Shown here one piece after another: positions 53,813 through 53,832 of a stretch of 64,000 nt of DNA. Below the pieces are notes generated by a model. That model made no database searches. It had not been told where the DNA came from and saw nothing but the letters and a program-made list of their open reading frames with translations. Each line of letters begins with the position of its first letter. Position 1 is the stretch's first letter. A program made the translations under genes and the position numbers. Location: the NCBI RefSeq assembly GCF_054482595.1, contig NZ_CM137008.1. One strand, written 5' to 3'.

Positions 53813-53832
53813 AACTGTCGATACGTACAGTA
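53813..53832. promoter_or_regulatory. Canonical LexA box (aaCTGTcgatacgtACAGta) upstream of ydjM, with a second overlapping CTGT-rich element at about 53829-53850
   Basis: CTGT-N8-ACAG palindrome 15 bp upstream of the ydjM start. Established knowledge: ydjM is in the SOS regulon. Confidence 0.75.

Follow-up and report, generated by a model that had tools for sequence, protein, structure and literature searches.

Which LexA-binding sites control ydjM and cho, two minor SOS-regulon genes, in the stretch of DNA considered here, and do they differ from those of Escherichia coli K-12? Cho is a back-up nuclease for the 3' incision in nucleotide excision repair and YdjM is a membrane protein. In the SOS response, LexA dimers bound to their boxes repress transcription until RecA filaments, present after damage, trigger the self-cleavage of LexA and derepression (PMC6590174); PMC6590174 Table 1 includes both ydjM and cho among the genes that LexA regulates and whose SOS box is known. 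The window, by which we mean the whole stretch of 64,000 nucleotides that was analysed, contains three sites that are, in our judgement with very little room for doubt, operators for LexA control of these two members of the SOS regulon: one upstream of cho and a pair upstream of ydjM. A first-pass annotation had counted two SOS boxes in the window; both were recovered, and the count rises to three recognised boxes with the tandem arrangement at ydjM.

The window and its two SOS genes

The window is a segment of the E. coli chromosome that runs from yeaD-gapA through thrS-infC. A 901-bp piece around the ydjM/cho finding was matched in 5423 of 5426 complete E. coli genomes, a 24-kb piece is approximately 100% identical to wild isolates (e.g. 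THO-010, TUM18780 and W619), and the gene order was taken from the annotation of the EC1515 genome, which is 98.6–99% identical to the window. The strain is of the wild-isolate type rather than K-12, with flanks that are 100% identical to those of, for example, THO-010 and W619.

On the minus strand, ydjM occupies 53208..53798 and encodes 196 amino acids from an ATG at 53798, in agreement with the RefSeq annotation of a near-identical genome. Its product is annotated as an SOS-inducible inner-membrane protein and putative metal-dependent hydrolase (RefSeq/NCBIfam); it matches the NCBIfam equivalog NF008651 over its full length (375 bits, with a cutoff of 216) and also the Pfam family PF04307 (YdjM). 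One paper that had been read as YdjM enzymology was rejected, its subject being YjdM, a different name. The cho gene (also referred to as ydjQ) lies on the same strand at 39812..40699 and encodes the UvrC-homologue excinuclease Cho, a protein of 295 amino acids that starts at a GTG (40699) preceded, 6 nt upstream, by the Shine-Dalgarno sequence GGAG, and that matches the NCBIfam equivalog NF007833 over its full length (579.5 bits, with a cutoff of 367). Both genes can be regarded as intact orthologues of K-12 ydjM and cho. At its other end, cho is convergent with ves, which lies on the plus strand, and the 3' ends of the two genes overlap by 41 bp (39812-39852).

Elsewhere in the window, the minus strand of 59017-60915 carries an intact open reading frame of 632 amino acids, which near-identical genomes annotate as the type III effector EspL1. 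Its GC content is 36–44%, below the approximately 50% of its flanks, which suggests horizontally acquired DNA; in K-12, the pseudogene arpB occupies this position.

LexA boxes upstream of cho and ydjM

The cho box extends over 40732..40713 on the minus strand and reads CACTGGATAGATAACCAGCA, with 13 nt between the box and the GTG at 40699, in an upstream region that reads ...cctgttaCACTGGATAGATAACCAGCAttcggagtcaacaGTG on the same strand. On the plus strand, 40713-40732 reads TGCTGGTTATCTATCCAGTG, with the core CTGGTTATCTATCCAG at 40715-40730. Read in the direction of the gene, the core CTGGATAGATAACCAG is a CTG-N10-CAG dyad with an A/T-rich interior, as in the gammaproteobacterial LexA operator, whose consensus is TACTG(TA)5CAGTA. 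This is the CTGG-N8-CCAG variant that had been noted 14 bp before cho, a distance that corresponds to 40713 minus 40699, i.e. to the 13 intervening nucleotides.

At ydjM, the promoter-proximal box (box 1) extends over 53832..53813 on the minus strand, reads TACTGTACGTATCGACAGTT and is separated by 14 nt from the ATG at 53798. The plus strand of 53813-53832 reads AACTGTCGATACGTACAGTA, with the core CTGTCGATACGTACAG at 53815-53830; on the minus strand the core is CTGTACGTATCGACAG, again a CTG-N10-CAG dyad with an A/T-rich interior. The sequence agrees with the CTGT-N8-ACAG box that had been described 15 bp before ydjM, where 15 is likewise a difference of coordinates (53813 minus 53798) and stands for the same 14 nucleotides. 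The adjacent CTGT-rich element mentioned alongside it is real, and is the published second ydjM box. This distal, weak box (box 2) extends over 53850..53831 on the minus strand and reads CACTGTATAAAAATCCTATA, or TATAGGATTTTTATACAGTG on the plus strand of 53831-53850. Its left half is consensus and its right half reads CCTATA where the consensus has CCAGTA; the core, CTGTATAAAAATCCTA, lacks the CAG arm, so that the dyad is represented by the left half only. Boxes 1 and 2, which are 14 and 32 nt from the ATG and offset by 18 bp, have in common the TA that forms the last two bases of box 2, and the minus strand upstream of ydjM reads ...gtgCACTGTATAAAAATCCTATACTGTACGTATCGACAGTTtagtgagttttatcATG.

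These sites are, as far as their sequences go, LexA boxes that have already been described and that are identical to those of K-12, a result that is correct but ordinary. The 25-mer TACACTGGATAGATAACCAGCATTC at cho is letter for letter the one given for K-12 in PMC3009722 Table 4, with no difference detected between the window and the box of K-12 cho (ydjQ, b1741). Box 2 of ydjM has the sequence given for b1728 in PMC4576408 Table 2, the tandem boxes of K-12 ydjM (b1728) show no difference from those of the window, and the 72-bp ydjM promoter is 100% identical to that of a genome of the K-12 serotype (O16:H48). The tandem LexA boxes of K-12 ydjM go back to Fernandez De Henestrosa et al. 2000 (cited by PMC6590174 and PMC4951493); in PMC4951493, the tandem sites and LexA binding at ydjM are described as experimentally reported and are credited to the same study. 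The geometry is also equal to that of Salmonella ydjM, whose two boxes lie 14 and 32 bp before the ATG and have a heterology index (HI) of 9.12 and 12.85, respectively; the published HI of the Salmonella ydjQ box is 6.69.

Scores and conservation of the boxes

As bare patterns, the boxes are at chance level. CTGT-N8-ACAG is found once in the 64-kb window with 0.63 occurrences expected, and at least one occurrence was present in 47 of 100 shuffles, which is not significant; CTG-N10-CAG has 29 matches and an expectation of 29.3 from the trinucleotide (codon-driven) frequencies of CTG and CAG. Its excess over dinucleotide shuffles vanishes with trinucleotide frequencies, and a gap of 10 is not special, with gap lengths of 4–16 between CTG and CAG yielding 18–47 matches. 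For this reason a weight matrix was built instead, 20 bp wide and symmetrised, from 17 other K-12 LexA boxes tabulated in PMC3009722; cho and ydjM were excluded from its training to prevent circularity, and chance counts were obtained from simulated 64-kb windows (first-order Markov).

With this matrix, the cho box ranks first (19.5 bits; 0.0025 expected per simulated 64-kb window), followed by ydjM box 1 (15.2 bits; 0.065 expected) and, as third-best score, ydjM box 2 (12.0 bits; 0.42 expected). The fourth hit, TGCTTTATTTATCACCAGTC at 38335-38354 in the astE-spy spacer upstream of spy, was rejected as a LexA site: its score of 10.4 bits is at chance level (0.87 expected per window), and one of its arms reads CTT rather than CTG. 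Hits below this rank are mostly intragenic, and the matrix scan of the whole 64 kb gave no further LexA site above chance; the scan is in this respect a useful positive control, which returns precisely the known sites and no others. The 17 proven K-12 sites score 13.6–28.5 bits, a range that includes cho and ydjM box 1 and that box 2 falls just under. Considered from the sequence alone, significance is clear for the cho box and borderline to good for ydjM box 1, whereas ydjM box 2 owes its significance entirely to its position directly next to box 1; the proximity of the start codons and the conservation across genera take away the doubt that remains. The HI values calculated with our own matrix (7.9 for cho, 9.9 for ydjM box 1 and 10.0 for ydjM box 2) are near the published ones for cho (7.5) and ydjM (9.0) (PMC11228462 Table 1), as well as those for Salmonella ydjQ and ydjM.

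Within E. coli, the ydjM promoter segment was found in 5422 of 5426 genomes, with all matches but one at an identity of at least 95%, and the cho promoter segment in 5415 of 5426, with all but four at that level. In the sampled variants, ydjM box 1 and the 16-bp core of the cho box are unchanged and the SNPs lie outside the box cores; in one strain the first base of the cho 20-mer is altered toward the consensus. The weak half of ydjM box 2 is the place where variants are met: strain NIPH17_0036 has a 7-bp deletion (AAATCCT, window 53834-53840), and a T-to-C SNP (AAATCC to AAACCC) was read in one genome and is probably the single difference seen in around one third of E. coli genomes. The C state of this SNP is the usual one in other genera.

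Comparison across genera covered 80 ydjM loci (79 distinct sequences) from Escherichia, Citrobacter, Salmonella, Enterobacter, Lelliottia, Leclercia, Kosakonia, Raoultella, Atlantibacter, Franconibacter, Phytobacter, Trabulsiella, Cedecea and others. In all 80, the TACTG...ACAG arms of box 1 are invariant and located 13–23 nt from the ATG, and the 8-bp interior differs between genera (e.g. ACGTATCG, ATGAATTG, ATGCATCG and ATACATCG); the left half of box 2, ACTGTA(T/C)AAA, is retained in 78 of the 80 genomes. The cho box is found 12–13 nt from the GTG in Salmonella, Citrobacter, Leclercia, Kosakonia, Enterobacter and Yokenella, and here too the arms are fixed while the interiors read ATAGATAA, ATGAATAA, ATGCCTGA, ACAAGTAA and ACAGGTAA. 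Fixed arms around a variable interior are the footprint expected of a LexA operator.

Two observations can be added on the individual boxes. The interior ACGTATCG of box 1 in Escherichia gives, at 15.2 bits, the lowest score among Escherichia, Citrobacter, Salmonella and Enterobacter, and in most other genera box 1 scores 16–22 bits, for which reason the affinity of LexA for ydjM may be weaker in Escherichia. At cho, the records of Salmonella and Enterobacter hormaechei call start codons that fall within the LexA box, upstream of the conserved GTG. This accounts for the ‘distance 0’ that PMC8072944 reports for Salmonella ydjQ; to judge from the conserved GGAG-N6-GTG, the real protein is probably the shorter Cho.

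Proposed promoter overlap, the second ydjM box and SOS control

The boxes, 13–14 nt before the start codons, overlap conserved -10-like hexamers. At ydjM, these are TATAAA (53845..53840) and TATACT (53834..53829), together covering 53829..53845 on the minus strand; both are candidate -10 elements and are essentially invariant across genera within the box pair. The candidate at cho is TACACT (40729..40734, minus strand), which overlaps the 5' edge of the box and reads TATACT in Salmonella and Citrobacter. The regulatory region of ydjM is limited upstream by an intrinsic-terminator-like hairpin that follows hxpB (53928..53959, minus strand). A sigma-70 consensus scan of both upstream regions gave no promoter of 9/12 or better. 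Published predictions from genomic SELEX place the promoters further upstream (CTGAAT-17-ATTAAT at 53921..53893 for ydjM and TTGTCA-15-TTTAAT at 40775..40749 for cho), and with these distal promoters the boxes would sit downstream of +1; the predicted distal elements are poorly conserved between genera. Directly upstream of ydjM box 2, a block that reads GAGTTACACCGTCACC..CTTCCG (53851-53880, minus strand) is near-invariant in the 79 distinct sequences, and the DNA upstream of the block varies across the same enterobacterial genera. The block may serve as a -35 region, or another factor may bind there.

In the model that we favour, a LexA dimer would sit on each CTG-N10-CAG palindrome in the undamaged cell, and at ydjM a second dimer would probably occupy the adjacent weak half-site with the help of the first. 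Both the promoter overlap and this cooperative binding are inferred. In the operators of colicin genes a strong and a weak box overlap, much as the good and the weak box of ydjM share terminal bases; the 18-bp offset at ydjM is unlike that of colicin operators, whose boxes overlap by more bases. Such overlapping strong-plus-weak boxes of colicin genes have been described as cooperative for LexA (PMC4951493). Several LexA boxes per promoter are also present at recN, which has three, and at lexA, where they are in tandem (PMC4951493 for lexA), but the boxes of lexA and recN are separate full palindromes, whereas the second box of ydjM consists of a half-site joined to the first.

It is possible, if rather unlikely, that box 2 does not function as a LexA site at all and is conserved as a set of promoter elements or as spacer, with LexA acting on ydjM through box 1 alone. 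The distal half of box 2 would fit this reading: it reads CCTATA in 80 of 80 genomes, with no drift toward CCAG, it carries the SNP that around one third of E. coli genomes probably have and the 7-bp deletion of one strain, and, with one consensus half only, the box reaches 12.0 bits, which is chance level in a 64-kb window. The invariance of TATACT and TATAAA is likewise what would be expected of promoter hexamers, yet the other, consensus half (ACTGTATAAAA) is retained in 78 of the 80 genomes, and a site of at least 12 bits placed exactly one operator length from box 1 has a probability of approximately 2e-5 per position in AT-rich sequence, which makes chance an unlikely origin. Moreover, the tandem sites at ydjM have been reported experimentally (PMC4951493), two boxes have been scored in Salmonella, and a strong box overlapping a weak one is the known cooperative LexA arrangement of colicin operators (PMC4951493). 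We keep box 2 as a probable weak LexA site. With a good deal of reserve, one could go further and propose a composite control region for ydjM, made up of the invariant half-site of box 2 and the equally invariant GAGTTACACCGTCACC..CTTCCG block, to which a weakly bound LexA dimer would be drawn by cooperation, while the basal level would be set by another factor or by an atypical promoter architecture. Were this so, the natural polymorphisms of box 2 (T/C and the 7-bp deletion) would tune the SOS-dependent expression of ydjM between lineages.

The inverted repeats could instead be hairpins in the 5' UTR of the mRNA that influence its translation or stability and are not operators at the DNA level, a reading that we consider very improbable and have rejected. 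Fixed arms and a variable loop are typical of hairpins as well, and the arms of ydjM box 1 do pair with each other in the minimum-energy fold, but the arms of the cho box are not paired with each other in the predicted fold, the folding energies of the two regions are unremarkable (z = -1.1 and -1.3), and the arms are conserved by sequence identity and not by compensatory change. In Kosakonia and Yokenella, the cho arms read CTGT...CCAG, which breaks one base pair and yet fits the tolerance of LexA for T or G at this position. Finally, it is almost certainly wrong to take the palindromes for accidental matches, or for ordinary AT-rich promoter DNA that plays no part in regulation, for although CTGT-N8-ACAG is counted about as often as expected (1 and 0.63) and a score of 15.2 bits allows approximately 10–20 chance sites per E. 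coli genome (p of about 2e-6 to 5e-6 per position), the top three matrix scores of the window all fall directly before the starts of two known SOS genes, and both the fixed arms and variable interiors in many genera and the identity to published sites (PMC3009722, PMC4576408) contradict it.

Under LexA control through the three operators, LexA bound over the best conserved -10-like hexamers would block the binding of RNA polymerase or its escape from the promoter, as we propose from the overlap of boxes and hexamers. Upon DNA damage, RecA filaments formed on single-stranded DNA would bring about the self-cleavage of LexA, the operators would be vacated and transcription of ydjM and cho would increase. 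With moderate HI values (approximately 7.5 at cho and 9 at ydjM), the affinity is predicted to be intermediate and the induction modest.

For the LexA dependence of the two genes and their induction by damage, we draw on the literature. The dependence of expression on cleavable LexA, assessed with lexA3, was 8.6-fold at ydjM and 5.1-fold at cho (PMC11228462 Table 1); AZT induced ydjM 2.5-fold, and cho, at 0.77-fold, was not induced (PMC11228462 Table 1). A published ciprofloxacin time course reached a log2 value of up to 1.6 for cho and up to 2.6 for ydjM, and the motif-bearing genes induced by UV include cho (PMC3009722). In Salmonella, nalidixic acid induced ydjQ 3.3-fold and ydjM 2.1-fold, and no signal was obtained from published GFP fusions to either gene. 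On the values for AZT and ciprofloxacin, the induction of cho in the literature is weak or inconsistent. The earlier statement that the boxes fit the known SOS-regulon membership of the genes holds, the boxes being identical to published sites and both genes being tabulated as LexA-regulated and lexA3-dependent. The further statement, that the SOS wiring is intact in this strain, applies to these cis-elements and the two coding sequences, because lexA and recA are located outside the window. What the finding offers is annotation value: a wild strain with unaltered LexA operators and intact coding sequences of two minor SOS genes.

The DNA further upstream of cho has features of its own. The nadE-cho spacer (40700-40928) holds a match to the Rfam sRNA family ES036 (CssrF) at 40807-40849 on the minus strand (42.9 bits; gathering score, 37.6), on the strand of nadE and cho and approximately 75 nt upstream of the cho box; a literature search on ES036/CssrF found nothing relevant. 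The spacer as a whole folds unusually well (z = -4.0), and contains a REP-like hairpin (40866-40889), two further hairpins and a closing stem that ends in a conserved CTCTTTTTT run.
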